Assembly (NCBI RefSeq): GCF_964194155.1
Contig: NC_135901.1
Coordinates: forward strand, 26,970,001-27,034,000
Direction of reading: 5' to 3'
DNA length: 64,000 nt
DNA from: Cetorhinus maximus
Taxonomy: Eukaryota
Shown: positions 2,481-53,565 of the stretch, piece after piece
Numbering within the stretch: the stretch's first letter is position 1
How the letters are laid out: each line of letters begins with the position of its first letter
Made by a program: the position numbers and the translations under genes
The notes under the pieces: model-generated
Told to the model about the DNA's origin: nothing
The model's database searches: none
The model's input: only the letters and a program-made list of their open reading frames with translations

Positions 2481-4671
2481 AAAGTGACCATTTCCTTACG
2501 TCAGAGTTGGGCCTGTTGTAACATGACAATTGGTCAATTTGGTTACGAGTTAAATTAATTGGATCCTCAATTACTTACGCCACCATCTCTCATTATCTTA
2601 GACAGGAAGACAATAGAACTGTTTCACACTATCCCTTTATCTGATTCTATACCATCACTTATTCATACAGATTCAAATTTTAAGGCTAATCAGAGCTTGA
2701 AGGTCTCTCTTGCCAGTACATTTCTCTTCATTGCACATTCTTTACATACACAGCAATGAACATTTTACATTTTTACAGAAAATAAAACTCCACGTTTTAC
2801 TATAATTACTGATTCATTATTGATTCATTAATTGTAACTCAATTAAGGCTCACTACTTATTCAATCAACTATTACTGACTGGTCGCTAATTAATACAGCA
2901 ATCCTTAATAAATACATTTGGTTAATACAAGATACACTGGTTCAAAAGGACAGTTTGTGGAAGACAATAGCATTTTTTCTTACTAATCCTGACTAGATTA
3001 AACAATGAGCTGGACTTTGGCAGAATATGATGTCCTGTAGCTAATGAAAGTTAGAAAATAATTTATTTGTTTAAACAATTTCTGCTAGTTTTGCAGTTTC
3101 TTGAAACATTTAGGTTCATATAGTGTTATTTTAAAAATAAAGATCCAGCCTTTACAATATGATTATCTATTACATTGATTCACTAATGAGAACTTAATCA
3201 AGGTTCATTACTGAATAATCGTTTGTATCATGACTGGCTTTTAATATGAAATCAATACATAGTTAATAAAGAAAAGTTACAGAGTGTGAAATGGCTGCAG
3301 GAAGCCACATGTTAGTTTAAAATGGCTTCCTTGACCTTGTTACTTATGACAGTGAATACAGTGTGAAAGTGATTGAATTCTACAACTAAACTTGATTACC
3401 CAGGGGTTCCTATACAGTTTTCTATGTTAAACAGTGACGACACTTCATTGGCTGTAAAATGGTTTAGGAGGTCCTGTGGTCGTGAGAGGTGCCATAGAAA
3501 TGCAATTTATTTCTAATTGTTCGCAAACTTGGATATTTAAAATCAGGCCCCTCACCAAAATCATTGATAAAGATTGAGCTTTAATTTTGTGTAATAACCA
3601 TGTCTTTGACACCATTTTGAATGCTCTGTGAAAATCCAAACACACTATATCCTGAATGATTTGTTTGAAAACACAGCGAGCCGTTGTGATTTGGAATTCG
3701 CTGCCTGAAAACAGTGCGAGCAGGAGGTTCAATTATATCTTTCAAAGGATATGGGACAGATTCTTGAAAGGAAAAGGAAACTGCAGGATAATGGGATTAA
3801 TTGGAGAGCTCTTTCAAAGAGCTAGCATAAGCACAAAGGGCCAATTGGCCTCCTGTGCTCTATGAGTCTCGTGTGCATTTAAAGCAATTGGAACGGGCCT
3901 GGAACCCATTCCCTATGAGGGGGGTAGAAGCAGAGGTGAGGCAGTGACTTCAAAAGGAAACTGCATGGGCACTTGATCAAAATGAACCTACAGGGATAAG
4001 GGGTTGGGATGGGGCAATGGAACTGCTCGACAGAGAGCCAGCATTAACTCAAAGAGCTGAATGGCCCCATTCTCTGCCCTAATGAACACATGGGAGAAGA
4101 GCTTCAGCTGCCCCAGTCTCTCCAACTAAGTGAAGTCCCTCATCCCTGGTGCCATTCTCCTCAATCTCCTCTGCAACCTTTCGAAGGACTTCACATCTTT
4201 CCTAAAGTGTGGGGCCCAGATATAGGGTTTCATTCCAGAGGGATGGAATTGAAAAGCAGAGAGGTTATGTTCAACTTGTTTCGAACCATGGTTAGACTAC
4301 ACTGGGAGTACTGTCAACATTTGTGATCTCCATTTAGAAAAAAAGAAATAGAGGCACTGGAGAAGGGGCAACAAAGATTCACAAGAATAATATCAAAACT
4401 GAGAGGACTTAATGTGGAACTATCTACCACAGCGAGTGGTTGAGGTGGATAGCTTGAATACAATTAAGCGGAAGCCAGGTACATAGGCGAGGTAGAAATA
4501 TGCACTCCCAGGCTCAAGGTGCATCAGCCCACTGGAAGCAAAGTCCTGAGACCGACCAGTCCAGCAGAAAGAAACCCTCCGACCCTCCCACTTCACCAAT
4601 GTCAGAATGAACATGGTTCAGTCCTGGATGTGATGAACAGCAGCAACAACAGCAAAATCCAACCCCTGTAA

Positions 4672-5430
4672 TCACTTGTGAACTCGCTGATGTCTCTGCA
4701 TGTGGGATAATTGAGTGAATCCCTTCCCACACACTGAGCAGCTGAACGGCCTCTCACCAGAGTGAACTCGCTGGTGGATCTGCAGGTTGGCTGACTGAGT
4801 GAATCCCCTCCCACACACAGAGCAGGTGAAGGGCTTCTCTCCATTGTGAATTCGCTGGTGTGTCAGCAGGGTGGATGAATGACTGAAACCCTTCCCACAC
4901 ACAGTACAGGTGAACGGCCTCTCCCTGGTGTGAACTCGCTGGTGTATCAGCAGGGCGGATGACCTTCTAAACCTCTCCGCACAGTGAGAACAGCTGAATG
5001 GTCTGTCCTCAGTGTGAATGCGCTGGTGGATCATCAGGTCCTGAGAGCTTTTGAAGCCGCTCCCACAGTCAGAGCATTTAAAAGGTCTCTCACTCGTGTG
5101 GGTGACATGGTGCTGCAGCAGGTTGGATAACTGAGTGAATCCCTTCCCACACTCAGGGCAGGTGAATGGCCTCTCACCAGAGTGAACTCGCTGGTGGATC
5201 TGCAGGTTGGATGACTGAGTGAATCCCTTCCCACACACAGAGCAGGTGAACGGCCTCTCCCCGGTGTGAACTCGCTGGTGTCTCAACAGGGAGGATGACC
5301 TTCTAAACCACTTTGCACAGCGAGAGCAGTTGAATGGCCTCTCCCCGGTGTGAATGCGTTGATGAGCTTCCAGCTCAGATGGGAATTTGAATCCTTTCCC
5401 ACAGTCCCCACATCTCCATGGTTTCTCCAT
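4672..5430 (-). CDS. C2H2 zinc-finger protein, 9 fingers, no effector domain (G1)
   Basis: 252-aa ORF of tandem CX2CX12HX3H repeats with HTGERPF-type linkers. The family 3' UTR follows at ~4520-4671. Confidence 0.9.
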
Positions 5431-5722
5431 TTGCTGGTATCTCTCCAGGTTCTACAAACAGATGAAGAATCGTTTGCACAGAACACGTGTACGGTCTCTG
5501 TCCTCGCTGTGAATGGTGCAATGTTTTTTCAGGTTTAAGCTCTTTCCACAGTCAGTGCATTGGAAGCCTCTCATTCGGGTGTGTGGGTCTCGGGCCTTTT
5601 TCAGTCCCCCTGATGTTTAGAACCTTTTGAAGCCGACAGAACACAGAAACATTTCCCCTTCTAGGTTCAAAGGATGTCAGACAGTTTCCTTCTAGATTCA
5701 AAGGCTAATGATATTCAGTTCC

Positions 5723-6570
5723 AAGGATGTCAAATCTCTTTAAGAGAGAGAGACCTGGGCCAACCTTTCCAGAGTCTGCACCCTCCCTGGATTCACTTCC
5801 TTTCCCTTCAGTTCCTGCAAGTCAACAATTTGCCCCCAGAATGAGAAAAGAAACGGAAAGGGGGAAACATTGATTTCCTCACAGATGTTGCCCAGAGGAG
5901 GAAGTTTCAGTCTGAAGCTCATTGTCCAACTTCCGCATTGTGACGTCCACAATGGAACCCTGCCTGAATCAGCCAATAGGAATCATTCTGCTCCGCGGTG
6001 ACGTCCTCGGGTTCCAGTCTGCAGGCCAGGCGCGCGGACACGGGAGCCCCGCCCCTACCCATTGATACCCCTCCCCTTACCCCTCCCCTTCCCCCTCCTC
6101 GAGCCAAGGTTTCCAGGCAACCGGTTGACGGCTCCGGCCAGAGCGAGAAGCTGCTCGGAGAACTCCGGAGAGGGGAAGCTGCGCATGTGCGGGGGAGAGC
6201 CCGCTCCTTCCCTTCATGCTGAGGGAGTGACCAATGGGAAGAGTTGGAGGACCGGAAGGACTCTGGTCCTCCAGCCAATCAGAGCGCGGACTTTGTGCGA
6301 ATGAAGCTTGAGCTTCACACAGACAAAAACTTCCTCCTGTGTCCAACATCTGTGAGTAAAACACTTTCTTTTCTCCCCCTTTCCATTTCTTTTCTCATTC
6401 TGGGGGGAAATTGTTGACTTGCAGGAACTGAAGGGAAAGGAAGTGAATCCAGGGAGGGTGCAGACTCTGGAAAGGTTGGCCCAGGTCTCCCTCTCTCTCT
6501 CTCTCTCTTAAAGACATTGACATCCTTTGCTCCCTCAGCTTGACACATTTATTTGTCTGGCTAAAAGGAT
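5723..6570. promoter_or_regulatory. Bidirectional promoter cassette 1 with inverted arms; core orientation opposite to cassettes 2-4
   Basis: CpG-rich core with CCAAT x3, tgacgtc x2, gcgcatgtgcg, ccggaag/cttccg and a GC box. Flanked by inverted copies of the agagagacctgggccaacctttccagagtctgcacc... arm. Lies between divergent G1 and G2. Confidence 0.85.
6425..6474 (+). other. Predicted 50-nt leader exon inside the promoter arm, present in every arm
   Basis: Upstream donor catct|GTGAGT (6352), pyrimidine tract and ttgcAG acceptor, purine-rich exon, then donor aag|GTTGGC. Its phase matches the downstream acceptor ttcacAG|GATATT at 7624. Splicing is inferred. Confidence 0.6.
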
Positions 6571-7154
6571 CTGTAATAAAGTACATTTATTATTAATTCT
6601 AGTCCTGTAATATTGTACTGTAGCCATATATATTTCCAGTCATAGAGTCAAACGGCACAGAAAGAGTCCATTCGACAAGTTGAGTCCATGCCAACTCTCT
6701 GTAGACTAATCAAGTCTGTCCCATTCCCCCTCTATATCCCCCTTCCCCTGCAAATTTATTTCTTTCCAAGTCCCATCCAATTTCATTTTGAAATCATGAA
6801 TTATCTCCACTTCCATTACCCTCGTAAGCAGCGAGTTCCAGATCATGACCACTTGCTGCCTAATTAAAGTTCTTCCTCAGATTCTCCCTGTCTCTAATCA
6901 GTAAATTTATGAAGACCCTCAACTCTTGGGCAAGAAGCAGTATGCATGGCCTGTTGATCAGCATGCAAGCAAGGGGGTGAAAGGTTATCAGGGGTAGGCG
7001 GGAATGTGGATCTTATTGAATGGCAGTGGAGGCTCGAGTGGCCTTCTCCTCATTCTAATTCGTATGTTTGTCTGATCACGAGAACAGGGAGGTTGTATAT
7101 TAGGTACAGCAGAGTGAGAATGGAGGGACAGTGTGTGGGGTGAGATTTACACCT

Positions 7155-7525
7155 TTTTAAAAAATATTTGTTCATGGGATGTGGGCATCGTTGGCTAGAC
7201 CAGCATTTATTGCCCATCCCTAATTGCCCTTTTTCAGACAACATTTAAGAGTCAACCACATTGCTGTGGGTCTGCAGTCACATGTAGGCCAGACCAGGTA
7301 AGGACAGCATATTTTTTTCAGTAAGGACATCAGTGAACCAGATGGGTTTTTATGACAATCGGCAATGATTTTGTGGTCATCATCAGACTTTTAATTTCAG
7401 ATTTTTATTGGATTCACATTTCACCATCTGCCATGGTGGGATTCGAACCCAGGTCCCGAGAGCATTTCTCTGGGTCGCTGACAGACTAGTCCAGTGACAA
7501 TAATGCTATGCCACTGCCTCCCCAA
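7155..7525 (-). mobile_element. tRNA-headed SINE sharing its 3' end with the LINE at 60735
   Basis: Minus-strand head ggcagtggcatagc...gggttcgaatcccacc carries a B box. The tail atttattgcccatccctaattgc also occurs at the LINE end at 60740. Confidence 0.7.
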
Positions 7526-7969
7526 AATGAGAGAAGAAAGAATCTTCCATAGAAACTACAATTCTCTTTTCTGAATTTCTATCCTGCACTGACAGCGATG
7601 ACTTCTGTAAACATCTTTCACAGGATATTAGAAGGGGAGGATTTATGGACAGAAATCTCACATCAAATGTCACATCAAGATCTGAGAGAGTCATTCCATT
7701 CATGGGAACCGAATGTCATCGGGAGAAATCTTTGTTTGCTCTGTCTGCTTCAGAAGATTTTAAACATCAGTGTGACTGGAAAAGCACCGAGACACACACA
7801 CCCGAGTGAGAGTGTTCCAATGCACTGACTGTGGAAAGAGTTTGCACCAGTTACACAGCCTGAAAACAACATCACCATTCACAGTGGGGAGAGACCATAC
7901 AGGTGTTCTGTGTGTACACGAGGCTTCAACTGACCATTAAAGCTGGAGAGACACAAGGATACGCGCACC

Positions 7970-8812
7970 ATGGAGAAACCGTGGAAATGTGGGGACTGTA
8001 GGAAGGGATTCCCTTCCCCGTCTGCGCTGGAAACTCATCGACGCATTCACACCGGGGAGAGGCCATTCACCTGCTCCATGTGTGGGAAGGGATTCAATGA
8101 TTCATCCCACCTGCAGACACACCTGCGAGTTCACACCAAGGAGAGGCCATTCACCTGCTCTGAGTGTGCGAATGCATTCAGTGATTCATCCGCCCTGCGG
8201 AGGCACCGGAGAGTTCACTCTGGGGAGAGGCCATTTATCTGTTCTGAGTGTGGGAAGGGATTCACTCAGTTATCCAACCTGCAGAAGCACCAGCGAGTTC
8301 ACACCGGGGAGAGGCTGTTCACCTGCTCTGAGTGTGGGAAGGGATTCACTCAGTTATCCCACCTGCTGCGACACCATGTCACTCACACGAATGAGAGACC
8401 GTTTAAATGCTCTGACTGTGGAAGTGGCTTCAAAAGCTCTCCGGAACTGATGGGCCACCAGCGCATTCACACTGAGGAGAGACCTTTCCGCTGCTCTGAG
8501 TGTGGGAAGGGTTTTAGATGGTCAACAACCCTGCTGATACACCAGCGAGTTCACACCGGGGAGAGGCCGTTCACCTGCTCTGTGTGTGGGAAGGGATTCA
8601 GGCATTCATCCACCCTGCTGATACACCAGCGAGTCCACACCGGGGAGCGGCTGTTCACCTGTACCGTGTGTGGGAAGGGATTCAGCCATTCGTCCACCCT
8701 GAGAAAGCACTGGCATGTTCACACCAGGGAGAGGCCATTCACCTGTTCCGTGTGTGGGAAGGGATTCACTCAGTTATCCAGCCTGCGGAGACACCAGCGA
8801 GTTCACAAGTGA
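7970..8812 (+). CDS. C2H2 zinc-finger protein, 10 fingers (G2)
   Basis: 280-aa tandem finger ORF with accATGg Kozak context. The family 3' UTR follows at 8813-8980. Confidence 0.9.
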
Positions 8813-9099
8813 TTCCAGGGGTTGGATTCTGCTGTTATTGCTGCTGTTAATCACATCCAGAACTGAACCATGTTCATTCTGACACTTGGTGAAGTGGGAG
8901 GGTCAGAGGGTTTCTTTCTGCTGGGCTGGCCGGTCTCAAGACTTTGCTTCCAGTGGCTGATGCTCTTTGATCCTGGGAGTGCACATTTCCACTGAAATGA
9001 CCCACAAAAGCTGATGAAGGACATTTATTTTATCCTGAATAGTAAATAGTGTTTTTCCTACCACTACAGGTAGATCCAAAATAAATACATTTGTCTCTA

Positions 9100-9700
9100 T
9101 TCCTTTGAGTCTACAGCACAGGGCCAGGCCAGTCGGCTCAATTGGTCTCTGTCAGTATTTATGCTCCACATGAGCCTCCACCCACCCCTCTTCATCTCCC
9201 CCCATCAGAATATCCTTCTATTCCTTTCTCCCTCATGTATGTATCTAGCTTCCCCTTAAATGTATTCATGCTATTCACCTCAACCACTCGCTATGGTAGC
9301 GAGTTCCACGTTCTCACCACTCACTGGGTAAAGAGGTTTCTCATCAAATCCCTATTGGATTATTGAACCCCTTCATCATCTTAAAGACTCCATCAGGTCA
9401 CCCTTCAGTCTTCTCTTTTCTAGAGAAAAGCAGCCCCAGCCTTTCCTGAGGGTTAAATGCTCTCAGTTCTGGTATTATTCTTGTGAATCTTTGTTGCCCC
9501 ATCTCCAGTGCCTCTATTTCCCTTTTCTAAATGGAGATGACAAATGTTGACAGTGCTCCCAGTGTAGTCTAACCATGGTTCGAAACAAGTTGAACATAAC
9601 CTCCCTGCTTTTCAATTCTATCCCTCTAGAATGGAACCCTATATCTGGGCCCCACATTTTAGGAAAGATGTGAAATTCTTAGAGAGGGTGCAGAGGAGAT
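9100..9700. repeat. CR1 3' fragments forming a duplicated ZNF 3' flank
   Basis: Near-identical blocks at 38450-39100 and 56230-56880, and an inverted partial copy at ~4100-4480. Confidence 0.7.
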
Positions 9701-11507
9701 TTTTTTTGGGTGGGGGGGGTCACCCGATGTTGAAAAAAGGCTGTTGATAGAGGTGCCACCCTCTTCTCGTCTGAGGTCTGAGTAGGTTCACTTTCCAGGA
9801 ATCCCCTCTGCCCGTGAACTCCTCCCACCTGCCTCAGAATTGATGCCGGGTGGGAAACCGTCCTTAAGTGGTCATTAATTGCCTACTTAAGGACTTCAAT
9901 TGGGGCAAGGGTGGGTGGGCCAGCCTCGGTCTTGCCCATCCCACCGTAAAATTGCGGAGCGGTCAGGATAGGTGGGAGGGCATTAGGAAGAGGAATTTTA
10001 TGGGCCTCCCTGCCTACAAACCCGCTGGTGGTGGACTGCAAAATTCTGCACAATGACAGCTTCCAGATAGTTATAAAAACTCAATTGATTCACTCATAAC
10101 CTTCAGGGAAAGGACTTTATCATCCCCTCCCAAACTGCCTACACGTGACCCTTGATCTACCCGTGCTTACCTTTTAATGTTCTCAGGGGAACTAGGAATG
10201 ACATTCTCCAGGGAGCCCCCATTGATATCTCCCTCTGAGCAGCAACCCCAGTTTTTCCATCCTTCCCCTTCACCTAACTTCATACACAATGCACCTGTAG
10301 GGGGCTAATCAAACCATCCTAATTATTCCACGTACCAATACCCCTTGGGCTCAGCATGATCAACAATCATCTCACCTCTCTTCATTTTCCTCCAGAGTGC
10401 CAATTGGTTCACAAACAAAGTGTTACAAATTCAAAGACTACAGCCTCTCTCGTGTAATGAACTGCATGTAAGATGACTGCCTGCAGGGACTCCATCGTGG
10501 CAGAGGTCACATGACTACAGCAAGCCAGATAGGAGATTGACGAGAGTGGGATCGGGGATGAGGCACGTCAGTTAGTTGGAGAGACTGGAGCAGTTGTAGC
10601 TCTTCTCTTTAATTCAAATGTGCATTGGGGCAGATTTGGCCCATTGAGTTCATATTAGCTCTCTGAAGAGCAAACTATTCTGTCCTATTTTCCTGTTCTA
10701 CCCCCATATCCCTGTAGGTTTATTTCCCTCAGGTGCCTCTTCAATTTACTTTTGAAATCATTCCATCATCTCAGCTTCCACCCCCCTCTTAGGAAGTGGG
10801 TTCCAGGTCATTACCACTCACTTGAAATGCTTACGAGGCTCGTAGAGCACAGAATGAGGCCATTCGGCCCATTGTGTACATGCCGGCACTTTGAAAGAGT
10901 TATCCATTTCATCGCATCGCCCTGCAATTTCTTTTTCAGGCAGCGCTTTCCACATCACAAAACTCGCTGTGTTTTTAAACAAATAATTCAGGATATAGTG
11001 TGTTTGAATTTTCACAGAGTATTCGGAATGCTGTCTAAGACAAGGTTATTACACAAAAATAAGACTTAATCTTTATTCATGGTTTTGATGAGTTAAACTG
11101 AGTGTAATATATCCAAGTTTGTGAACAATTAGAAATTAAATGGCATCTCTCATGACCACAGAACCTCCTAAAGCATTTTACAGCCAGTGAAGTACTTTTG
11201 AAGTGTAGTCACTGTTGTAATGTAAGAATCTGTAGATAGGCCTGGGTAGTCAAATTTAGTTTTAAAATTCAATCACCTTCATACCGTATTCACTGTTATA
11301 AGTAACAAGGTCAAGGAAGCCTTTTAAACCTCTAACATGTGGCTACTTTCAGCTTTTTCATCTTCTGCAACTTTTCTGTGTTGACTATATATTGATTTCA
11401 TATTAAAAGCCAATCATGAAACAGATGAATATTCAGTAATGAACCTTGATTCACTTCTCATTAGTTACAGATAACAAGATCAGATGACATAAATCCTAAA
11501 TTTAAAA

Positions 11508-11950
11508 ACCTGCATTTACATAGCGTCTTTCACAACCACAATGCATCCCAAAGTGCTTTGCAGGCAATGAAGTACTTTTGAAGTGCAGTCACTGTTGAAA
11601 TGTTGGAAACGTGACAGCCAATTTATACACAGCAAGATCCCACAAACAGCAACATGATACTGAGCAGATGATCTGTTTTGAGTGATGTTGATTGAGGGAT
11701 AAATATTGGCAGGGCACTGGGGATAACTCCCCTGCAAAATAGGGAACTTCTATGTCCATCTGAAGCAGCAGGCAGGGCCCTTGGGTTCGTATCTCAACCA
11801 GGAGACAACAGCTCCAACAATGCAGCACTCCCTCAGCGCTGGCACGAGGAATGTTGGATGTGATTTCTGTCTTTAGGTCCCAGGACTGGGACTTGAACCC
11901 ACAACCTTCTGACTCAGAGGCGCGAGTGCAATCTGCTGAGTCACGGCTGA
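11508..11950 (-). mobile_element. Full-length DeuSINE/SacSINE1-like tRNA SINE
   Basis: Minus-strand head gccgtgactcagc...ctctgagtcagaaggttgtgggttcaagtcc (A/B boxes), central gagggagtgctgcattgt, and tail aaagacgctatgtaaatgcagg. Confidence 0.85.
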
Positions 11951-12049
11951 CACTGTGGACAATTGTCATGACCACAGCCAGTGTTAATTGCTGCACAAAC
12001 CAAATCCCAGAGGGAAACTTGGCATTGGACTTTTCTGTTCTTTTTTTAA

Positions 12050-12900
12050 AAATCCAGTCTGGAGCAACTGCACTGCTGAGATTTGGCACAAATTTCCGAT
12101 AAAATCCACTCATGCGAGGAAATCTCAAAACTTCCCATTTTGCTGTAGGCACTGGGAATTCCACAACAGCTTTTCCTTTTGCACCTCGTGGGGCCACTTG
12201 ACCGTGTCCAACAGTGTGAGCTAAATACGTGACTTGCACGTTCAAAAGTTCACTTTTAGCCAAATTCGCGACAAAATTGGCTTCCAGTCGATCAAACAGT
12301 TCCTTTAAGTGTTGTAAATGTTCCTTAGCACGTTTGACTGAACACTATTTAGTCATCAAAATAAACAGCACGATTGTCACAGTCACTTTGTTTGTTGGTC
12401 TCTGAAATGTTGCTGGTGCATTTTTGATACCAAAAGGCATTGCTTTGCATTGGTGCAAAACATCCGGTGTCACGAAAGCTGATATCTCTTTTGCCCTCTC
12501 TGATAAGGGTACTTACCAATATCCTAGCAGCAGGTCAATTTTTGTGATAAATGTTGACTGTCCCAATTTCTCGATACAATATTCCAAACATGGAATAGGA
12601 TATAGGTCAGCTTTCGGTACTACATTCACTTTTCTCAATCATCAATACATCGTCTTTGTGGTCCATCCGGTTTTGGCACCATGACAATAGGTGAGCTCCA
12701 ATTATTGTAACTGGGCTCAATAATGTCAATTTGAAGCATGAGTTCAATTTCTTTTCACACTTGAGCTAATTTTACTGGATTTTTTACTGGATTTAATCTC
12801 TATGGGTGTTGCCTTTTGAATCTGAATTCCCCACATCAACATCATGTACAGCTAAATTTGTTTTCCCCAGTTTATTTCCACAAATTGCTTTGTGTGATTG
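12050..12900 (-). pseudogene. Gypsy reverse transcriptase remnant; RNase H and most of the 3' LTR deleted
   Basis: YPIPCLEYCIEKLGQSTFITKIDLL.GYW, MPFG.KNAPATFQR, VTYLAHTVG and FYRKFVPN motifs, interrupted by stops and frameshifts. Confidence 0.85.
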
Positions 12901-13099
12901 CAATAGCTCTTTTAAATCACTCCGACACTTTTCTGGAAGGTAATCCAATATTCCAGCTAAATTCTTAAGCACGCCATCATTGTCCAGTTTAATCAAAGGA
13001 AGATCAATTTTAGAATCCTTAATTCCTACATCTGTTTCTTTACTTATAACTACCAATACCTCCTCCTGTCTATTCTCTCTGTCAAAGTATTTTTTGAGC

Positions 13100-14110
13100 G
13101 TATTTACATGGCTCAGTCGCTGACTCTTCCTTCTATAAGGGGATTACGATGTTTACCTCACTCAGTTTCTTTTTGACCTGGTGAGGTCCACTAAACTTTG
13201 CCTTCAATGATACTGGCAACAATATTAACACTTTTCCCCCAGCCACAAAATTACAAGCTTTTGCCCTCTTATCTGCATTTGCCTCCATCACTTGTTGATA
13301 TATCTTTAAAATGTTTCCGAGCTAGCTCACATGCCTTACTTAATCTCACTCTGAATTTCACCAAATAATCTAGAAGAATAGTTTCAGAACTTAAATTTAC
13401 TAATTTCTCCTGAATTAGTTGGAGTGGTCCCCTCACTTCATGACCATAAATTAACTCGAAAGGACTGAACACTGTTGACTCATTAGGAGCGTCCCTAATA
13501 GCAGACAACAAGAATGGAACCCCTCGATCCCAATCATGTGGAAAGTCTTGACTGTATGCGCTAATCATAGTCTTTAAAGTCTGATGCCACCTTTCTAAGG
13601 CACCTTGTGATTCAGGGTGATAGGCTGACGACGTAAATTGCTTTATTCCTGGGCTGCTCATTCTTTCTTTAAACAGCTGTGACATGAAATTCGAACCCTG
13701 ATCCGATTGCATTTCTGTTGATAATCCATATGTTGTAAAAAAAATTCTTAACTCCTCTACCATCACCTTTGCTCTAATTTTCCTTAAAGATATTGCTTCT
13801 GGAAATCTCCTGGACACATTCATGATTTGTCAGTCAGTACTGATTCCCACTTTTAGTCTTAGGGAGTAGTCCTGCACAATCAATCAGAACCCTGTTAAAG
13901 GGTTCCTCAAATGCTGGAATTGGAATTAAAGGTGCAGGCTTAATTATTGCCTGAGGTTTTCCTATCACTTGACATGTGTGACATGCTTGGCAGAATTTGA
14001 CTACATCTTTATGTAGTCCAGGCCACTAGAAATGTTTTTGTTTCTTAGCTCGAGTTTTCCTAATCCCCAAATGTCCAGCCATTGGAATTTTATGAGCCAC
14101 TCTCACAATC
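13100..14110 (-). pseudogene. Gypsy integrase remnant (HHCC and catalytic core)
   Basis: GHLGIRKT...WPGLHKDVVKFCQACHTCQ, then ORF 13269-13823 with SDQGSNF and ERWHQTLK. Confidence 0.85.
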
Positions 14111-15247
14111 TGGTACCCAGATGGTATCACTATTTGGTGCACTATCGCCCACTTTTCATTTGCCTAAACCTGAGGCAGTCTCCATTTCCTCATTAACACA
14201 TTGTTCGGAATGTAATAACACTCTGGAGTGTATTCTGCTCCTGTTTCAGAATAAGCTGGCATAATTGCTTCAAGTCTGGATCCTGCTGCTGTAACCCCAC
14301 TAACTTCATTGAATTAAACAACTCAGCCTCAACCTCTCTAATCTTTTTTTCCTGCTTAATCCTTTCAAAGATTGATCCAGCCAACTGAAATTCAGCATCC
14401 TCCCCGTGTCTTTTAGATTCTTCCTCCCCCTGTTTAACTTGTGTGTTTGTGACCTCGTCACCACACAATCTGGAAACAATCCAGGATGCTCTTTCTGTAA
14501 AACCTCTGTAGGTTGTGTCTCAGCGGGCTGCTCTACTACAGTAGGCATAGTCAATAACTATGATCCAGCTGTATCGTTCCCTAGAATAAATTGAATCCCT
14601 GCAATGGGCAATTTCTCTACCGCCCCAACAATCACTTCTCCTGTTTTCAAATCACTTTTTAAATTCACCTTATACAATGAAATATCTTTGACTCCTCCAT
14701 GAATCCCCCGGATCAAAACTCTCTCCTGCAATAACCCTTCTGGACAACAGGTGGCACTATCCCATAACATTAAGGACTGGCTAGTCCCCGTGTCTCTTTC
14801 CTTTTCTTCCCTGCACACATGGGTACACCTTTCCTTTGCATATAAAATCTCTGTACCTTGCCTTTCAGAGCTCCCTTGGGTAGGTTGTGAACATGTTGCC
14901 AATTCTCTCGCTACCACTGATTCTTCCTGCTCCACCTGTACAAAATCCACCAGTTTTTCTTGCCCCTGGATCCCAGAGCCCACAGTTCTCTTACTTCAGA
15001 ACTTTTTCTGAGTTCCTATCACTGCAATCGGTTTCCCGGTTAACCTCCACCTATATGATATTGTATGTCCAGTCTGATTGCAATGGGAGCATATCAGTTT
15101 CCTTCCTTTAATTCTATTTTCCACATTTCCATCTTTAATAGACTGGCGTCCTTCAGCTTGATCCTTATCACAAACATTTTTACCATCGCTAGGTTTTCTA
15201 AATCTCCCATGTCCTCGCTGATTTCCATATGACCCTTTTCCTACACT

Positions 15248-15805
15248 CTACTGTTTGTGTGAAATTTCATACGTATCGGCTAAAACAGCAGCTTCTCTGA
15301 TGTTTTTACTTTGTCTTTCAGCTAAATATGTCTTGGTGTTTACTGCAATGCTATTTCTAAATTCTTCCATAAACATAACCTCTCTTACATTTTCAAATGT
15401 CTTGTCTAATTTTAATGCTCTGAACCATTGATCCCAGATCATTTCTTTTTCTCTTGCAAACTCCACAAATGTCTGATGAGGTCTCTTCCTGAAAGTCCTA
15501 AACTTTAACTGGTCAGCTTCAGGGACAAGCTCATAAGCATTGAATACGGCCTTCTTTACTATCTCGTAATCTGCAGACTGTTCCTCTGATAAGCTTGCAT
15601 ACACATTCATTGCTGTGCCTGACAAAACACTCTGTAACATGATAGTCCAAGCATCACTTGGCCAACTCAATTTCATAGCAATCTTTTCCAATGAGGTGAA
15701 ATGTCTTTCAATTCCATCCTCTGTAAATTTAAGCACTAACCGAAGATTTTTAGTTAAATCAAATTCCTCATCGGACATCGGAATCACTATCTCTCCTTTC
15801 TTCAT
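15248..15805 (-). pseudogene. Gmr1-type gag capsid region (SCAN-related C-terminal domain)
   Basis: FEK-like/W...LSG.A..VYASL and DYEIVKKAVFNAYELVPE...KFR motifs typical of Gmr1-like Gag. Degenerate zinc knuckle near 15050-15090. Confidence 0.75.
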
Positions 15806-16502
15806 TTATTCTAAGCGTCACTTTAGACAATTCATACTGTCTGGCTCCTTTCTCTCTCTGTAGCTCTCTATCTCTTTCCCTACCTCTTTCCTCAATTGGT
15901 AACTTCTCTCTCTGAAGTTGAAGTTCAATCTTTCACATTTCTATCTCCCGTAATCTTTTCCTTTTCCTGCTCATCTCTTTCCCATTGAAGCTTTTTTAAA
16001 AATTCTATTTATTTTCATCTGTCTTTTTATTTTTCAAGTTTTGTCATTTCTCTTTCTTTCTAACTCGAATTGTTTTCATTTCTTTTTCTTTTCCTCTTTC
16101 TTCCAATTCAAGCTTTTGCCTTTCTCTATCTCTTTCTATATCAAGCTGCTTCTTTGGCAACTGAAGTCTTACTGCCTCTAGCTGTGACACACTAGTTTCA
16201 GGTGTCCCTTCCTCCAACTTTAAATGCAGGGTAAGTACTTTAACTGCATCAGCCTTACGAAATTCCGCTTTTATCTCTACCTGCACTTCATCTGCTAACT
16301 CTCTCAACTGAGTTTTAGTCAGAGATTTCAAATACTCCATAGTCACATTTTCCACTCCTAGAAAAGTTGTAGCAATTGCCAAAGTCATTTCGCAGTCCAG
16401 CCACTTAAAAAACCCTCAACACAAAACTCCTGAGTTCAGCCTTTTTCTCACACTCGTATCCCTTAGATTCACAAACTCCAACCCAATCAAGGAATTTTAA
16501 TA

Positions 16503-22030: not shown

Positions 22031-24090
22031 AGACATATCTTTATCCTATATTAATTTACTGCCCCCTTAAATGTCAGCCATCCCATGGGGAAACCACCCC
22101 TTTAATTGTGAACATTAGGAAAGAGACCATCCTTTTAGCCAGACAAATAAATGTGTCAAGCTGAGGGAGCAAAGGATGTCAGTGTTGGGACCACAACTTT
22201 TCACTTTATACATTAATGATCTAGATGAAGGAACTGAGGGCATTCTGGCTAAGTTTGCAGATGATACAAAGATAGGTGGAGGTACAGGTAGTATTGAGGA
22301 GGCGGGGAGGCTGCAGAAGGATTTGGACAGGTTAGGAGAATGGGCTAAGAAGTGGCAGATGGAATACAACGTGGGGAAGTGTGAGGTCATGCACTCTGGT
22401 AGGAAGAATAGAGGCATAGACTATTTTCTAAATGGGGAGAGAATTCAGAAATCTGGAGTGCAAAGGGACTTGGGAGTCCTAGGACAGGATTCTCTTCAGG
22501 TTAACTTGCAGGTTGAGTCGGTAGTTAGGAAGGCAAATGCAATGTTGGCATTTATTTCGAGAGGACTAGAATATAAAAGCAGGGATGTGCTGCTGAGGCT
22601 TTATAAGGCTCTGGTCAGACCACATTTAGAATATTGTGAGCAATTTTGGGCCTCGTATTTCAGGAAGGATGTTCTGGCCCTGGAGAAGGTCCAGAAGAGG
22701 TTTACGAGAACCATCCCAGGAATGAAAGGCTTAACATATGAGGAACGTTTGAGGACTCTGGGTCTATACTCGTTGGAGTTTAGAAGGATGAGGGGGGATC
22801 TGATTGAAACTTACAGAATATTGAGAGGCCTGGATCGAGTGGACGTGGGGAAGATGTTTCCATTAGTAGGAGAGACTAGGGCTCGAGGGCACAGCCTCAG
22901 AGTAAAGGGAAGACCTTTTAGAACAGAGATGAGGAGAAACTTCTTTAGCCAGAGAGTGGTGAATCTATGGAATTCATTGCCACAGAAGGCTGTGGAGGCC
23001 AGGTCATTGAGTGTATTTAAGACTGAGACAGAAAGGTTCTTGATTGGTCAGGGGATCAAAGGTTACGGGGAGAAGGCGGGAGAATGGGGTTGAGAAACTT
23101 ATCAGCCATGATTGAATGGCGGACCAGACTCGATGGGCCGAATGGCCTAATTCTGTACCTATGTCTTATGGTCTTATTATGGTCTTATGTCAATGTCTTT
23201 AAGAGAGAGAGAGAGAGAGACCTGGGCCAACCTTTCCAGAGTCTGCACCCTCCCTGGATTCACTTCCTTTCCCTTCAGTTCCTGCAAGTCAACAATTTCC
23301 CCCCAGAATGAGAAAAGAAATGGAAAGGGGGAGAAAAGAAAGTGTTTTACTCACAGTTGTTGGACACAGGAGGAAGTTTTAATCTGTGTGAAGCTCAATC
23401 ATCATTCACACAAAGCCCGCGCTCTGATTGGCTGGAGGACCGGTGTCCTTCCGGTCCTCCAACTCTTCCTATTGGTCAATCCCTCAGTATGACGGGTGGG
23501 GGCGGGCTCTCCCCGGCACATGCGCAGCTTCCTCTCTCCCGAGTTCTCCGAGCGGCTTCTCGCTCGGGCCGGAGCCGTCAACCGATCAACCTTGGCTCGA
23601 GAAGGTGGAGGGGGAGGGGGAACAATGGGTGGGGGCGGGGCTCCCGTGTCCGCGCGCCTGGCCTGCAAAATGGAGCCCCAGGACGTCACCGCGCAGCAGA
23701 GTGATTCCTATTGGCTGGTTCGGGAAGGGTTCCATTGTGGACGTCACAATGCGGAAGTTGGACAATGAGCTTCAGACTAAAACTTCCTCCTCTGGGCAAC
23801 GTCTGTGAGGAAATCAATGTTTCCCCTTTTCCATTTCTTTTCTCATTCTGGGGGCAAATTGTTGACTTGCAGGAACTGAAGGGAAAGGAAGTGAATCCAG
23901 GGAGGGTGCAGACTCTGGAAAGGTTGGCCCAGGTCTCTCTCTCTCCTAAAGACATTGATATCCTTTGCTCCCTCAGCTTTGTTTATTAGATTTATTTATT
24001 TGTCTGGCTAAAAGGATGGTCTCTTTCTTAATGTTCGCAATTAAAGGGGTGGTTTCCCCAGGAGATGGCTGACATTTAAGGAGACAATTT
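22030..24090. promoter_or_regulatory. Bidirectional promoter cassette 2; left arm interrupted by a CR1
   Basis: Same arms and core (core ~23410-23770) as the other cassettes. Lies between divergent G3 and G4. Confidence 0.85.
22182..23186 (+). mobile_element. Young 5'-truncated CR1 LINE with 6-bp TSD
   Basis: Uninterrupted 305-aa RT C-terminal ORF (FADD) and cttatggt-type tail repeats. atgtca at 22176-22181 and 23187-23192 reconstitutes the intact arm seen at 36161. Confidence 0.92.
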
Positions 24091-25437: not shown

Positions 25438-26448
25438 ATGGAGAAACCGTGGAAATGTGGGGACTGTGGGAAGGGATTCAAAGCCCCGTCTGAGCTGGAA
25501 ACTCATCGGCGCAGTCACACTGGGGAGAGGCCATTCACCTGCTCTGAGTGTGGGAAGGGATTCACTCAGGTATCCCACCAGCAGAGACACCAGCAAGTTC
25601 ACAGCGGGAGGAGACCGTTCACCTGCTCTGAGTGTGGAAAGGGTTTCGCTGATTTATCCGCCCTGCAGATGCATCGGCGAGTTCACACCGGGGAGAGACC
25701 CTTCACCTGTTCTGAGTGTGGGAAGGGATTCATTCAGTTATCCCACCTGCAGATACACCAGCGAGTTCACACCGGGGAGAGACCCTTCACCTGTTCTGAG
25801 TGTGGGAAGGGATTTAGTGATTCATCCACATTGCTGACTCACCAGCGAGTTCACAGCGGGGAGAGGCCATTCACTTGCTCTGAATGTGGGAAGGGATTCA
25901 CTCGGTCATCCTACCTGCTGACACACCAGCGAGTTCACACCGGGGACTGGCTCATCTGCTCTGAGTGTGGGAAGAGATTCACTCGGTCATGTGACCTGCT
26001 GGCACACCAGCGGCTACACACTGGGGAGAGGCCATTCACCTGTTCCGTGTGTGGGAAGGGATTCATTCTGTCATCCACCCTGCAGACACACCAGCGAGTT
26101 CACACTGGGGAGAGGCCATTCACCTGTTCCGTGTGTGGGAAGGGATTCACTCGATCATCCCACCTGCTGAGGCACCAGACAGTTCACACCGGGGAGAGGC
26201 CATTCACCTGCTTTGAGTGTGGGAAGGGATTCACTCGGTCATCCCATCTGCTGACACACCAGCGAATTCACACCGGGGAGAAGCCATTCACCTGCTCCAA
26301 GTGTGGGAAGGGATTCAGTGATTCATCCTCCCTGCTGAGACACCAGCGGGTTCACACCGGGGAGAGGCCGTTCACAGGCTCTGAGTGTGGGCAGGGATTC
26401 ACTTGTTCATCCGAGCTGCTGACACACCATGATAGTCACACTGATTAG
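25438..26448 (+). CDS. C2H2 zinc-finger protein, 12 finger units with the last degenerate (G4)
   Basis: 336-aa ORF with accATGg start. The next finger (RTFRCSDCG) is cut by an LTR. Confidence 0.88.
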
Positions 26449-26475
26449 AGAACTTTTAGATGCTCTGACTGTGGC

Positions 26476-27620
26476 TGTTAATTGTATCAATTGAGGTTAA
26501 GTATATACAGGTGGACATCATGGATTGGATAGTTACTTGAGCACATATAAAGAGACCCTTACTGACATAGAGTGTAGTGGAGTCAGGAGATATATACCTG
26601 TAATGTTTCACTCAGTGAATAAATCTATACAAAGCAAAGACTGGCTCCAGTTTCCTCCTTCACCATCAGGCTGTCAGGATTATAACATGGTAACAGAGAA
26701 TGCTTGTCTAAAGGTGAAGGTTGGAAACTAAAGGAAAATAAAATTTCAGACAGAAACTTACAACCTGAATAGCTTTTGTGAGAAATGGCTGAAAGCAAGT
26801 GGGAATTGTCAGGGTCTGATTACCCGCCGATGTTCTCGGAGTCTGAGCCACACGACCAGTGGAAGAATGAAGTGGATATGTGGACACGGGTTACGTCCCT
26901 ACCAAGGAGGAAACAAGGTCTGGTCTTGGCATCGTCATCTCCCAACAAAAGTAAAATCAGAAGCAAAGTATTTAGTGAGCTGGATACTGGTCAATTGGAT
27001 ATTGATGAAGGTTTGGATCTTTTATTCAGGTTCACTGATGAGATTTGCAAGAAAGATGATCTATTGGATGCCTATGAAGCATAGTTGGACTTTGACATGT
27101 TTTGAATGAGGGTGAAAGTATCCTTAGCATATCTGGAAATCACAGCAAAATACAGGATTGGAACAGCACTAATAGGTGAATGAACCCCAGGAATGACCAG
27201 GGAATAGTTAACAGGTGTTTCAGGTCTGGCTCAAAATATCATTATGTGATGAACTGCCCAAAGTGGAAAATCAGGGTCTTCGAAGTGACACATGATACAG
27301 AGAATTCTGAGGCTGAAGATGATGATGATGATCACTCTGAAGGAATTGTACTAGTCACAAGGAGCTTTGGTCCAGTGATGAGTATGTTAGTCACAGACTC
27401 ATTCAACTGTGCTGTGTTAGACAGTGGCTGCACCTCGTCAGCATGTGGATTAGATTGGTGAACATGTTACCAAGATTCACCTCGTACTGAGGATCGACAC
27501 AAGGTTAAGGAGTGTGAAAGTTTTACTTGTCTTGGTTTGGTGATGTCAACACACTGAAGTCACGAAAAAGAGTGGGGATTCCCTGCAAAATACCTGGAGT
27601 CAGCCTCTTTATCAGTGTAA
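26476..27620 (+). mobile_element. Ty1/Copia (GalEa-like) LTR retrotransposon 5' fragment
   Basis: 212-bp LTR TGTTAA...ATAACA (26476-26687) with AATAAA, then PBS tggtaacagagaatg similar to the initiator tRNA-Met complement. Gag DYPP...DQWKNEVDMW, degenerate knuckle CFRSGSKYHYVMNC, and protease AVLDSGC. Confidence 0.8.
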
Positions 27621-33894: not shown

Positions 33895-33898
33895 ACCA

Positions 33899-34110
33899 TG
33901 TTATAATCCTGACAGCCTGACAGCGAAGGAAGAAACTGGAGTTAATCTTTACTTGGCATAGATTTATTCACGGAGTGAAACAATTCAGGTATATACCTCC
34001 TGACACCACTCCACTCTATGTCACTAAGTGTCTCTTCATATGTGCTCAAGTAACCATCCAATCAATGCCCTCCCCCTGTATACACTTAACCACAGTTGAT
34101 ACAATTAACA
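33899..34110 (-). mobile_element. GalEa-like Copia LTR, second copy; PBS and leader displaced to ~31852-31895
   Basis: Reverse complement of 26476-26687 (tgttaattgtatcaac...ggctgtcaggattataaca). The PBS complement aagcattctctgttacca lies beyond the CR1. Confidence 0.85.
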
Positions 34111-34197
34111 TTTATAGTCCGAACAGAAAAGGGCTCTAACTGAAGTACTTCCATGGAGACTCAGGAAGTTGGATGAATCAGTGAATCCGTTCCCTCA

Positions 34198-35064: not shown

Positions 35065-36014
35065 GATGCTCAGTTGAAGCCTCAGCCACACACAGAACAC
35101 ATGTGCGTTCTCACTCTGCTTTGAACAGTGCAATGTATTTTCACAATGTGTAACTGGTTAAAGCACTTTCCACAGTCAGTGCACTGGAACACTCTCACTT
35201 GGGTGTGTGTGTCTCGGTGCTTTTCCAGTCACACTGATGTTTAAAATCTTTAGAAGCAGACAGAGCAGACCAACATTTCTTCTAGCTTCAAAGGCAGATA
35301 TTCAGATCCTGATGATTCAAGTGACTGTCAGATCTTGATCTTACCTTTGGTTTGAGATATTTGTCTACAAATCCTTCCCTTCTAATATCCTGTAAAAGAA
35401 GTTTACAAAAATCATCACTGTCAATACAGGATAGAAATTGAGACAATTCTCATTTCTATGGAACATTCTTTCCTCTCTCATTCCCCAAAAGGTGCAAGTC
35501 TCCGTCCCATACACTCTCCCTCCACTCTCACTCTGCTCTACCCAATATACACTCTCCCAATTCCACTGAAAGTGCGGATTTAAGCTGATCAATAGATCCA
35601 TGCTCACCACTTCCTGTCCAGTTCACAGAGATGTCAAAATCATATACACATATAGTACTGGACTAAAATGTCTGGACATTTTGGACCTTTTTTGAATACA
35701 CAAATGGTTGGCAGTCAACAGCTCATGGTTGCATTCACCATGCCAATGTTTCAACCAATCAAGGCTTGCTTGCCAACCAAACAGCACCCATTACTCATGC
35801 AGCATAAATTGTTATTCCCTTTGAAATTTGGTATTCTTTTGTCTGTCCTGATGAGGTAAAGATGAAAAGCTTCTGCAGCTTGTCTCTTTCTACAGCAAAA
35901 CTTAAGTTCTGTACAAGCAAACAGCTATTAATATTCGAAGACTAGAAATAATAATAAATGTTCTTTATTACAGAACCATAAATAATTTATCTAATATGTA
36001 CCATATAACAACAC

Positions 36015-36950
36015 GAGACATATCTCTGTTCGATATTAATTTACTGTTCCCTTAAATGTCAGCCAACTCCTGGGGAAACCACCCCTTTAATTGTGAACAT
36101 TAGGAAAGAGACCATCCTTTTAGCCAGACAAATAAATGTGTCAAGCTGAGGGAGCAAAGGATGTCAATGTCTTTAAGAGAGAGAGAGAGAGACCTGGGCC
36201 AACCTTTCCAGAGTCTGCACCCTCCCTGGATTCACTTCCTTTCCCTTCAGTTCCTGCAAGTCAACAATTTCCCCCCAGAATGAGAAAAGAAATGGAAAGG
36301 GGGAGAAAAGAAAGTGTTTTACTCACAGATGTTGGACACAGGAGGAAGTTTTAGTCTGTGTGAAGCTCAATCTTCATTCACACAAAGCCCGCGCTCTGAT
36401 TGGCTGGAGGACCAGAGTCCTTCCGGTCCTCCAACTCTTCCTATTGGTCAGCTTCTCAGCATGAAGGGAAGGGGCGGGCTCCCGTGTCCGCGAGCCTGGC
36501 CTGCAGACTGGAACTCGAGGACGTCACCGCGGAGCAGGGTGATTCCTATTGGCTGATTCAGGCAGGGTTCCATTGTGGACGTCACAATGCGGAAGTTGGA
36601 CAATGAGTTTCAGACTAAAACTTCCTCCTCTGGGCAACATCTGTGAGGAAATCAATGTTTCCCCCTTTCCATTTCTTTTCTCATTCTGGGGGCAAATTGT
36701 TGACTTGCAGGAACTGAAGGGAAAGGAAGTGAATCCAGGGAGGGTGCAGACTCTGGAAAGGTTGGCCCAGGTCTCTCTCTCTCTCATAAAGACATTGACA
36801 TCCTTTGCTCCCTCAGCTTGACACATTTATTTGTCTGGCTAAAAGGATGGTCTCTTTCCCAATGTTCACAATTAAAGGGGTGATTTCCCCAGGAGATGGC
36901 TGACATTTAAGGGGGAAGTAAATGAATATAAGACAGGGATATGTCTAGTG
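36015..36950. promoter_or_regulatory. Bidirectional promoter cassette 3 with an internal core deletion
   Basis: Inverted arms at ~36046-36304 and ~36660-36916. The core keeps CCAAT, CRE and ETS motifs but lacks the NRF1-like segment. Confidence 0.85.
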
Positions 36951-37843
36951 GTTATGTGATGCCTTGTCCATATACTATTTAAGGCTTTATAAACTTCATT
37001 TATTCTTGGTTGTTGGCTTATAATATAGTGTCATACCGACAGTTATATGTTTCCAGTCAGAGTCATTATCACAGAGAAAGAGTATATTCAGCAACTCGAG
37101 TCCATGCTGAATCACATCCCAGTTTATTTCCTTCAAGGGCCCCATCCAGTTTCATTTTGGAATCATTCATTGTCTCTGCTTCCACCACCCTCATAGGCAG
37201 CGAGTTCCAGGCCATAAGCACTTGCTGCAGAATTAAAGTTTCACCTCATCCTCTCTCTTTTGCTAATCAGTAAGTATACATATATATTTCTGTACATAGA
37301 TATTTAGATTAGCTGTGTCCAGGACAGGAAAAAGTGACCATGGATCTGTCAATCAGCATGAATCGGCACCTTCAGGAGAATTGGGAGGGTGTGTATTAGG
37401 TACAGCAGAATGAGAATGGAGGGCAAGTGTATGGGATGGAGATTTATATTTGACAGTGATGATTTTTGTAAATTCCTTCCACAGGATATTAGAAGCGGAA
37501 GATTTGCAGACAGAAATCTCAAATCAAGCTACACTTCAAGATCTGACAGAGTCATTTGATTAATTGGGTCTTGAATATCATTGGCCCTTTGAACCGAGCA
37601 GGAGAAATGTTTGTCTGTTCTGTCTGCTTCAAAAGGTTTTAAGCCTCAGTGTGACTGGAAAAGTACCGAGAGAGACGCACCCAAGTGAGTGTTCCAGTGC
37701 ACTGACTGTGGAAAGAGCTTTAACCAGACAGGCTGAAAAATCATTGCCCCATTCACAGTGGGGATGGACCGCATGTGTGTTTTGTGTGTGGATGAAGCTG
37801 CCTTTGATCATCGAATCTGGAGAGGCATAAGTACACCCACACC

Positions 37844-51110: not shown

Positions 51111-51574
51111 AATCATCACCCAGGCTGCTAGTCTTAAATATCTGTCAGTGCCTATAATAATGGGCTAAGTGTAACATACAGCAGAGGATGATTTCAACAG
51201 GAATATGAGTGGGATATGAGGAAGAACTTTATTTCAGCAGCAGGTGGTCATGTCCTGGAACTCGCTACCTCTGAGGATGGTGGAAATGGAGACAATCAAT
51301 AATTTCAAAATGAAATTGGTTGATCATTTGATGGAAATAAACTGGCGGGGGAATGGGAGTATAGAGGGGGAATGGGACAGACAGGATTGCTCCAGGGAGT
51401 CGGCATGGACACAAGTTACCGAATGGGCTTCCTCTGTGCTGTAATGACTCTGTGACTCGAAATACATAACGTAGCTACGTATATATATATATAAAACAAG
51501 ACTAGAAATAATAATAAATAAACTTCATTAAAGAACCATAAATAAGATATCTAATATGTACCATATAACAACAC

Positions 51575-52650: not shown

Positions 52651-53565
52651 AGTGTATATTAGTAATGGTTCTTTAGTAACAGAGATAGAGTCATTACAGC
52701 ACAGAAGGAGCCCATATGGTAACTCGAGTCCATGTTGACTCTCTGCAGAGCAATCCAGTCAGTCCCATTCCCCCTTTGTATCCCCATTCTCCTGCAATTC
52801 TATCTTGTTCAAGTGCCCATTCAATTTCATTTTAAAATCATGAATTGATTCCACTTCTATCACCCCTGTATTCAGCAAGCTCCAGATCATGAACAATCAC
52901 TGCCTAAAAAAAATTTATCTTCAGATTTTCCCTGTCTCTCTGATCAGGAAATATACTTATATGAAGATTTTCACATCTTGGATAGGAAGTAATGAGTTGC
53001 ATCTGCGAATCAGCATGAATCAGCCCCTTCAGGAGAATTGGGAGGGTGTATATTAGGGACAGCAGAGTGAGAATGGAGGCAGACTGCGTGGGATGGGGAT
53101 TTGCAACTTTTGGGGAATGAGAGAGAAAAGAATGTTCCACAGAAACTAGAATTGCCTGTTCTGAATTTCTATCCTGTACTGATGACTTTTGTAAATTCCT
53201 TTTACAGGATGTTAGAAGGGGAGGATTTACAGACAGAAATCTCAAACCAAACATCACATCAAGATCTGACAGAGTCACTCAATTCCTCAAGACCTGAATA
53301 TCATCAGCCTTTGACTCTGGGAGAAATGTTTTTCTGTTCTTTCTGCTTCATAAAATTTCAAACATCAGTGTGACTGAAAAACACCGAGACACACACACCC
53401 GAGTGAGAGTGTTCCAGTGCACTGACTGTGAAAAGAGCTTTAACCAGTTATATAGACTGAGAAAACATCACCATTCACAGCGGGGAGAAACCGTACACGT
53501 GTTCTCTGCGTGAACGAAGCTTCAACTAATCATCGACCCTGGAGAGACACAAGGACACCCGCACC

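Follow-up and report, generated by a model that had tools for sequence, protein, structure and literature searches.

We regard it as likely that the core between the first two genes of the window is a two-way promoter whose arms are simply the 5' ends of the genes on either side, made nearly identical by ectopic conversion starting at the promoter, and that crossovers at the same place re-pair partner genes and occasionally switch a gene to the other side of a core. The window, that is the whole stretch of DNA analysed, comprises 64,000 nucleotides (C24, NC_135901.1, 26,970,001-27,034,000); coordinates below are window positions unless given in Mb. In the cluster to which it belongs, arm sequence is decoupled from gene ancestry, arms carry cluster-specific alleles and patch hybrids, genes have changed partners, and not a single flipped pair of cassettes was observed.

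Anatomy of the cassettes

Nine C2H2 finger genes (G1 to G9) lie in the window amid remnants of retroelements. Each has the same plan, consisting of a short exon 1, a GT donor, a single intron and one exon with the entire finger array. The closest named proteins belong to sharks and rays, including Pristiophorus, Heptranchias, Scyliorhinus, Heterodontus and Chiloscyllium, which suggests that the family is elasmobranch-wide. The features are:

4672-5451, minus strand: G1, B side, open frame with C2H2 fingers alone; intron and acceptor lost by deletion
5723-5925, minus strand: B arm of G1 (exon 1 end, donor GT at 5882, intron start), shortened by a deletion at ~5723
5883-6351, no strand: cassette 1 core, putative asymmetric two-way promoter, TATA-less, donors 470 bp apart
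6309-6570, plus strand: A arm of G2 (exon 1 end, donor GT at 6352, homogenised intron start)
7624-8812, plus strand: exon 2 of G2 (A side) with acceptor at 7624; an open finger array at 7934-8812 follows degenerate fingers
8813-9695, plus strand: G2 3' UTR and flank, second homogenised zone
23187-24088, no strand: cassette 2 core and arms; A donor 23354 (minus strand) of G3, B donor 23805 (plus strand) of G4
26445-26691, plus strand: LTR-like insert 3' of the G4 array; matching copy 3' of the G5 array at 33895-34140 (minus strand)
35931-37026, no strand: cassette 3 core and arms; A donor 36326 of G5, B donor 36643 of G6; internal deletion of ~150 bp
51498-52655, no strand: cassette 4 core and arms; A donor 51890 of G7, B donor 52343 of G8
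63278-63703, minus strand: A-type donor (63649) and arm of G9; upstream sequence differs, no partner donor within 3.5 kb

A preliminary description of this DNA had correctly recognized the A and B ends and their order, with B at 5882 (minus strand) and A at 6352 (plus strand) in cassette 1, and A on the left and B on the right in cassettes 2 to 4. Position 5723, which it had given as the left limit of the element, turned out to be the border of the deletion in G1 that extends from donor +159 into exon 2. As judged from its sequence, the core is a two-way promoter of ~450 bp between head-to-head C2H2 zinc-finger genes, and what had been called 'inverted arms' comprises, for either gene, its own exon end, the splice donor and the initial ~280 bp of the intron. 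The hallmarks of a bidirectional promoter are present, i.e. divergent genes less than 1 kb apart and a CpG-rich, TATA-less spacer of 470 bp from donor to donor. The cores have a mean GC content of 57% and a CpG observed/expected ratio of 0.63, as compared to 45% and 0.33 for the region, and the core of cassette 1 contains what we take to be CCAAT, CRE-like, GC-box, NRF1-like and ETS-like motifs. The A and B ends can be told apart by the sequence upstream of about -45, by the surroundings of the donor and by position +21; further in, they are nearly identical, with perfect inverted runs between the two arms of a cassette measuring 95, 78, 78 and 93 bp in cassettes 1 to 4. In one study of organism C, whose contigs we guess to be of RNA type, 11 (X15) and 9 (X16) contigs pass from 51890, where the A donor of cassette 4 lies, into exon-2 sequence, and three X15 contigs at the B donor show mixed continuations. 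The B donor reads GTGAGG; the usual splice donor is GTGAGT.

In most window genes, degenerate fingers (7740-7935 and equivalents) precede a recurrent in-frame stop, which is followed by a MEKPW start. Positions 11589-16415 (minus strand) harbour an LTR-retrotransposon-like element, which is broken and shows matches to integrase (rve) and a SCAN-like gag. The two G1/G2 frames scanned gave no match to KRAB, SCAN or BTB; the only KRAB match genome-wide, at C34:9123034-9123144, is possibly PRDM9. Neither an Rfam search of positions 4000-10000 nor a metagenome scan with an A-donor 22-mer returned any match.

Extent of the cluster

An exact 28-mer of the A end occurs 270 times in the genome and an exact 37-mer of the B end 57 times, 56 of the latter on C24 within 26.98-31.33 Mb. 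A gap-free stretch of 1.264 Mb contains 160 donor ends, which form 48 two-ended cores, the other 64 being single and mostly of type A. Relative to the chromosome, pure cores of this stretch are oriented AB in 15 and BA in 14 cases; given this even split, the left/right contrast between cassette 1 and cassettes 2 to 4 carries no information. A single open frame is retained by only 74 of 151 genes, indicating that some relaxation of selection is real.

Neighbouring genes change strand far more often than they follow one another on the same strand: successive donors along the 1.264 Mb are arranged head-to-head in 62, tail-to-tail in 61 and in tandem in 36 cases, and 64 ends are without a partner donor within 3.5 kb. 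The B side decays more: 12 of 34 genes typed BBB have one open frame as compared to 54 of 96 AAA genes. The distance from donor to exon-2 block is below 500 nt in 19 of 46 B-side genes versus 1 of 96 A genes.

Copies outside the cluster, a biased sample of 10 families picked by exact 28- or 37-mer matches, are mostly located on whole finger genes, with 4 of 17 lacking fingers. They include a near-identical set dispersed on C24 (L122, L125, L126 and L128 at 0.39, 10.99, 12.95 and 15.74 Mb), three members of which (L122, L126 and L128) are ~99% alike in exon 2 and thus far younger than any duplicate of the dense cluster. In a second dispersed set (L123, L124 and L127 at 1.68, 4.93 and 13.14 Mb of C24) the arm is interrupted and no fingers are found within 5 kb. 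L121 (C2:97.71 Mb) is an isolated 43-bp piece across an A donor, beside a repeat that is also present in the cluster.

Gene lineage and core side

The view that gene lineage does not follow core side, as put forward in the preliminary description, is wrong for recent duplicates. Among 165 gene pairs that are at least 88% identical in the finger array, 20 have an untyped end, and the 145 typed pairs comprise 90 A-A, 44 B-B and 11 A-B combinations (three upstream donors aimed at the gene of a nearer donor, the source of three 100% pairs, were dropped). In a tree of the exon-2 5' block, which included 134 genes and omitted 17 with a short or missing block, the B label changes 13 times as compared to 31 times for shuffled labels. 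Seven of these changes are forced by well-supported branches, and a single B clade is rejected (AU p 3e-104). Side is thus strongly clustered on the tree; recent duplications have passed it on, and it has switched on several occasions since the old radiation.

The supposed close relatives on opposite ends are in fact not close, as exon-2 5' distances are 0.154 for G4-G5, 0.192 for G2-G6, 0.150 for G3-G8 and 0.141 for G7-G8, and most gene pairs of the region are separated by 0.14-0.3. The nearest relatives of G3, G4 and G6 occupy their own side (d 0.084, 0.046 and 0.045, respectively); G8 alone has its nearest relatives on the opposite side (d 0.09). The marks that had been cited for kinship mostly exist, but are too common to indicate it: the KAPSELE start of G4 and G5 is found in 10 and the HHVTHT finger of G1 and G2 in 29 of 151 genes, and the 3' flank common to G2 and G6 reappears, taking the G2 copy as reference, in 41 other genes of both sides at an identity of at least 88%. 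The same holds for the insert of G4 and G5, which is real (84% over 247 nt) but has 42 hits in the region; it lies 3' of the array in no fewer than 14 genes, from both sides, and marks a 3' lineage. Its poly(A) signal and ACA end suggest that it is LTR-like. The 3' UTR variant ascribed to G8 and G9 is not confirmed, the two having just 81 nt in common at 86%.

Homogenised arms

Identity among A ends is ~95% from 0 to +200 and then falls gradually, without a sharp end, to 90% at +220, 85% at +280 and ~72% past +340. A terminal-inverted-repeat transposon was considered for the core and rejected in view of this gradual fall and of the outside copies, most of which sit on whole finger genes. Arm distances remain flat at 3-6% across gene distances of 2-22%, and arms are ~2% away from the cluster majority regardless of gene ancestry, a value that shows no dependence on how old the nearest paralogue is (rho -0.03 for 73 A ends). 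Close paralogues, that is those less than 5% apart, have 71% of their non-majority alleles in common in exon 2, 82% in the distal intron and 51% at +280 to +340, as compared to 0-9% between -58 and +280. At +44, all 111 intact cluster arms carry C and seven of ten outside families carry A, and positions +54, +55 and +248 behave likewise. The cluster genes g93, g63 and g126 are sister to the outside copies L122, L126 and L128 (100 SH-aLRT), with each set mostly bearing the alleles of its neighbours. Moreover, the patch hybrids g32 (BAA) and g85 (BBA) can be compared to g108 and g155 (both BBB), respectively, whose genes are 92-100% alike: the members of each pair sit in cassettes with both genes in common, and the diagnostic patch alone differs, both flanks being kept. 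Decoupled genealogy, non-reciprocal patches and, by comparison to 10 outside families only, group-specific variants are thus all present, as in concerted evolution.

Linkage between A/B state and sequence is complete at +21, drops to ~78% at +55, which is the end of a G run and may mutate often, and is absent from there to ~+290. Hybrid ends are one-way, with 16 BAA and no ABB among 277 ends, and therefore call for selection or a donor bias; selection for the A donor or donor abundance could account for them. In the inner core (-160 to 0 from the donors), the closest paralogues differ by 7-11% as compared to 4% in the gene, which may reflect a higher mutation rate, the decay of CpG sites or exchange among diverse cores.

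The stop codon marks the beginning of a second homogenised zone; here, identity between unrelated genes rises from 80% to 92% within 50 nt. A common 3' UTR motif is present in 109 of 151 genes, and one 3' flank is 89-95% alike among genes that are 15-22% apart in exon 2. The middle, from distal intron to last finger, has ~80% identity.

Re-pairing of genes and orientation of the core

Exchange between cassettes, one of the two mechanisms proposed in the preliminary description, is supported, in that it has likely re-paired genes with promoter ends over evolutionary time, the B genes not being one clade. The gene tree contains 7-13 side changes, and 17 of 31 multi-member families pair with more than one partner family. 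Core pairs with one gene in common carry it on the same side in 91 and on opposite sides in 4 cases at 90% identity; the corresponding numbers at 87% are 125 and 33, with noise from the common 3' zone owing to short B introns. In the side-switched families g16/g38, g48/g135 and g29/g22, the intron is 83-96% alike from +250 on. That is, the whole intron beyond this point moves with the gene, which places the break in the arm, between -50 and +250. A strict grouping of introns by A versus B, named beforehand as evidence to the contrary, is accordingly not seen. Duplication ends fall into cores in 48 of 209 distinct cases as compared to 7.7% expected, a threefold enrichment, and into core and intron pooled in 63 of 209 cases versus 21.5% expected (p 0.002), both values being overestimates, as alignments continue across a core whose sequence is similar in every copy. 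The duplicated blocks measure 5-56 kb, and 37 of 68 are inverted.

The other proposed mechanism, an inversion of the core in place through crossover between the two arms that flank it, at least on an evolutionary timescale, appears improbable to us, even if later re-pairing is assumed to mask the flipped cassettes. The core is flanked by inverted repeats in the four cassettes, whose perfect runs of 78-95 bp make the mechanics possible, and the side changes with breaks in the arm would also fit. However, among 81 oriented cores, pairs with both genes in common have them on the same side in 37 of 37 cases at an identity of at least 90% and in 72 of 72 cases at 87% or more, leaving no flipped pair. 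These pairs, which are not independent, represent 19 cassette types present at least twice; the sequence used comprised 1.26 contiguous Mb plus 63 further stretches of the cluster (about 26.9-31.3 Mb), with 60 stretches picked by exact B-end, A-end or core matches and not at random, and 4 untypable cores and every core with a gap exceeding 1.3 kb were dropped. A smaller test on 39 cores (9 of 48 dropped) yielded no flipped versus 15 and 21 same-side pairs. The two arms of a cassette are no closer to each other than to foreign arms (0.042 versus 0.044, 38 cores, p 0.14), have 4 of 291 rare alleles in common as compared to 0.6% by chance, and show no correlation of microsatellite lengths (37 cores). 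Nor is there a trace of exchange between the two genes of a cassette, the best 200-nt window averaging 0.845 within (58 cores) and 0.846 between cassettes (p 0.76). G1/G2 have the top within-cassette window (0.905), and yet the G2 array is nearer to g87 (89%) than to G1 (84%). Finally, a flip upstream of the donor would leave ABB opposite BAA, and the lack of the reciprocal type among the 277 ends argues against it. Reads on cassette 1 were swamped by repeats and contained no usable joint. Three 'opposite strand' joints at cassette 4 were not counted as inversions, since each is represented by one contig and the paralogues number in the hundreds.

Both mixed-side families at 90% derive from one cassette type, G7/G8, both genes of which have opposite-side members: g153 combines a G7-like gene with a B upstream, and in g25 and g134 a G8-like exon 2 is preceded by a 5' intron of G7 type. 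This pattern could have arisen from one old inversion and subsequent re-pairing, and is the only hint of such an event; two separate exchanges explain it equally well.

Alternative explanations

The main rival to conversion is strong purifying selection on the arms, acting on the promoter and on control elements in the first intron and recently released, so that homogenisation would only be apparent. We consider this unlikely, although several observations speak in its favour. The variant spectrum of the arms is star-like, with 2% of variants in at least five copies as compared to 57% expected under steady unbiased exchange, which rejects ongoing even-handed conversion and requires the assumption of a past or donor-biased phase. 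The arms of outside copies are also more conserved than exon 2 and in most cases deviate from the majority by 3-8%, two reaching 13% and 16%; purifying selection therefore contributes. About half of the genes are broken, and at many core positions the majority letters agree across organisms A, B and C, of which B and C are close relatives. However, steady selection predicts that ~70% of arm variants are common to close paralogues, far above the 0-9% seen; the cluster-specific alleles cross gene lineages; and patch hybrids as well as common 3' flanks require exchange. A release of selection is at odds with the finger structure, which is still constrained on recent branches (pN/pS about 0.1-0.2 at the C/H and F/L codons), where the arms drift approximately neutrally. 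No positive selection was seen at DNA-contact residues on these branches, their pN/pS of 0.49-0.68 resembling that of other positions.

An assembly artefact, in which near-identical arms were collapsed or mis-joined, is very doubtful. No public contig spans an arm, but the arms are ~2% off the majority, mostly through private variants, collinearity at ~93% extends over duplicated blocks as long as 56 kb, and run X1, which may be the source sample, contains four unique pieces of cassette 1 with zero differences. We give even less credit to a programmed switch in which RAG or a site-specific recombinase would recognise a short signal within the arms. The inverted arrangement invites this idea, and germline-joined immunoglobulin genes exist in cartilaginous fish. 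Still, the best RSS-like match has 3-4 mismatches and a 24-nt spacer, a quality that 4 and 15 of 100 shuffled sequences attain as well, the exchange points range from about -45 to the 3' UTR, and the nine window ORFs scanned (of 46 listed) contain no recombinase family. Neither a switch nor a signal nor an enzyme was thus found in these ORFs and in the RSS search, whose result is at chance level.

Discussion

Conversion is likely the cause of the homogenised arms. Breaks would arise at the CpG-rich promoter, presumably in meiosis and directed by the promoter itself, and would be repaired from any of the hundreds of paralogous cores, not mainly from the other arm of the same cassette. Non-crossover repair would homogenise a few hundred bases. 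A crossover between like ends would re-pair partners or duplicate and invert blocks of 5-56 kb, and a crossover within the stretch common to A and B would make a gene switch side. The active phase is probably over, dating back to about 2% of divergence per lineage and to before the split from organism C. The arms are ~2% off the majority, the youngest true duplicates are 97.7% alike, and the likely orthologue of the G2 intron in organism C differs at 11 of 337 letters; taken together, these values would date the fading of this phase to around that split.

According to PMC5519329, recombination in species that lack full PRDM9 function takes place at promoter-like features, and the SSXRD domain is missing in some cartilaginous fish. 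An SSXRD search of the present genome gave no match anywhere, with the controls being equally silent. It is conceivable, albeit tentative, that the cluster represents a fossil map of promoter-directed meiotic breaks, in which hundreds of copies of a single hotspot promoter drove a shuffling that kept the 5' and 3' ends uniform as the finger middle diverged, swaps of half-cassettes at the core built new pairs, and a true inversion occurred occasionally among the side changes. The processes themselves, concerted evolution and ectopic recombination, are known; the case is unusually large and clean.

As in interlocus gene conversion and NAHR within segmental duplications, there are non-reciprocal patches, homogenised islands and rearrangement ends in the most similar sequence. 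Unlike there, the exchange is centred on promoters, involves many dozens of genes (160 ends in 1.26 Mb) with a fall-off at ~300 bp, and has a second zone at the stop codon, with a diverged middle in between. The bacterial invertible promoters fimS and hin are induced or enzyme-driven on/off switches. The mating-type inversion of Ogataea (Hansenula) polymorpha, as portrayed in PMC4238957, is likewise an induced or enzyme-driven on/off switch, and resembles our case in that the orientation of a segment would set which gene lies at which end. In contrast to these systems, splice donors are present at both ends here, and contigs, by our guess of RNA type, cover both first exons. The flip/flop region on Saccharomyces chromosome XIV (PMC9731477) is similar in having an inverted repeat made of genes that is recurrently homogenised, according to the abstract by implication without a dedicated recombinase. 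There, repeats of 4 kb flank 24 kb and both orientations are found, whereas the arms described here measure ~0.3 kb and homogenisation extends over the whole cluster instead of operating between the two arms of a pair, with no flipped copy seen.

KRAB-ZNF and zebrafish FiNZ-ZNF clusters share with the present one a fast turnover, a single finger-array exon, segmental duplication and many broken copies, judging from PMC10547256, the main text of which makes no mention of shark, cartilaginous, gene conversion or head-to-head. Unlike KRAB-ZNF genes, the two G1/G2 frames scanned lack KRAB, SCAN and BTB matches. Promoter-directed meiotic hotspots of species without full PRDM9 function, as outlined in PMC5519329, are similarly centred on promoters, which here are CpG-rich and TATA-less, but our data reflect ectopic exchange between paralogues instead of mapped breaks. 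A literature search, with most subscription journals outside its scope, revealed no paper on this cluster or its promoters, and the portions seen of PMC8892340 and PMC8455134 contain nothing on it.

Taken together, the claim of a vertebrate invertible promoter is removed for this locus. To our knowledge, the origin of new genes and their partners in large zinc-finger clusters is poorly resolved. The cluster offers a measurable profile in this respect, comprising a homogenised reach of ~300 bp past the donor, a decay of linkage from +21 to +55, and an enrichment of duplication ends at promoters. Should promoter-directed breaks be the cause, the cluster would provide a test of where recombination is placed in cartilaginous fish, given their partial PRDM9.
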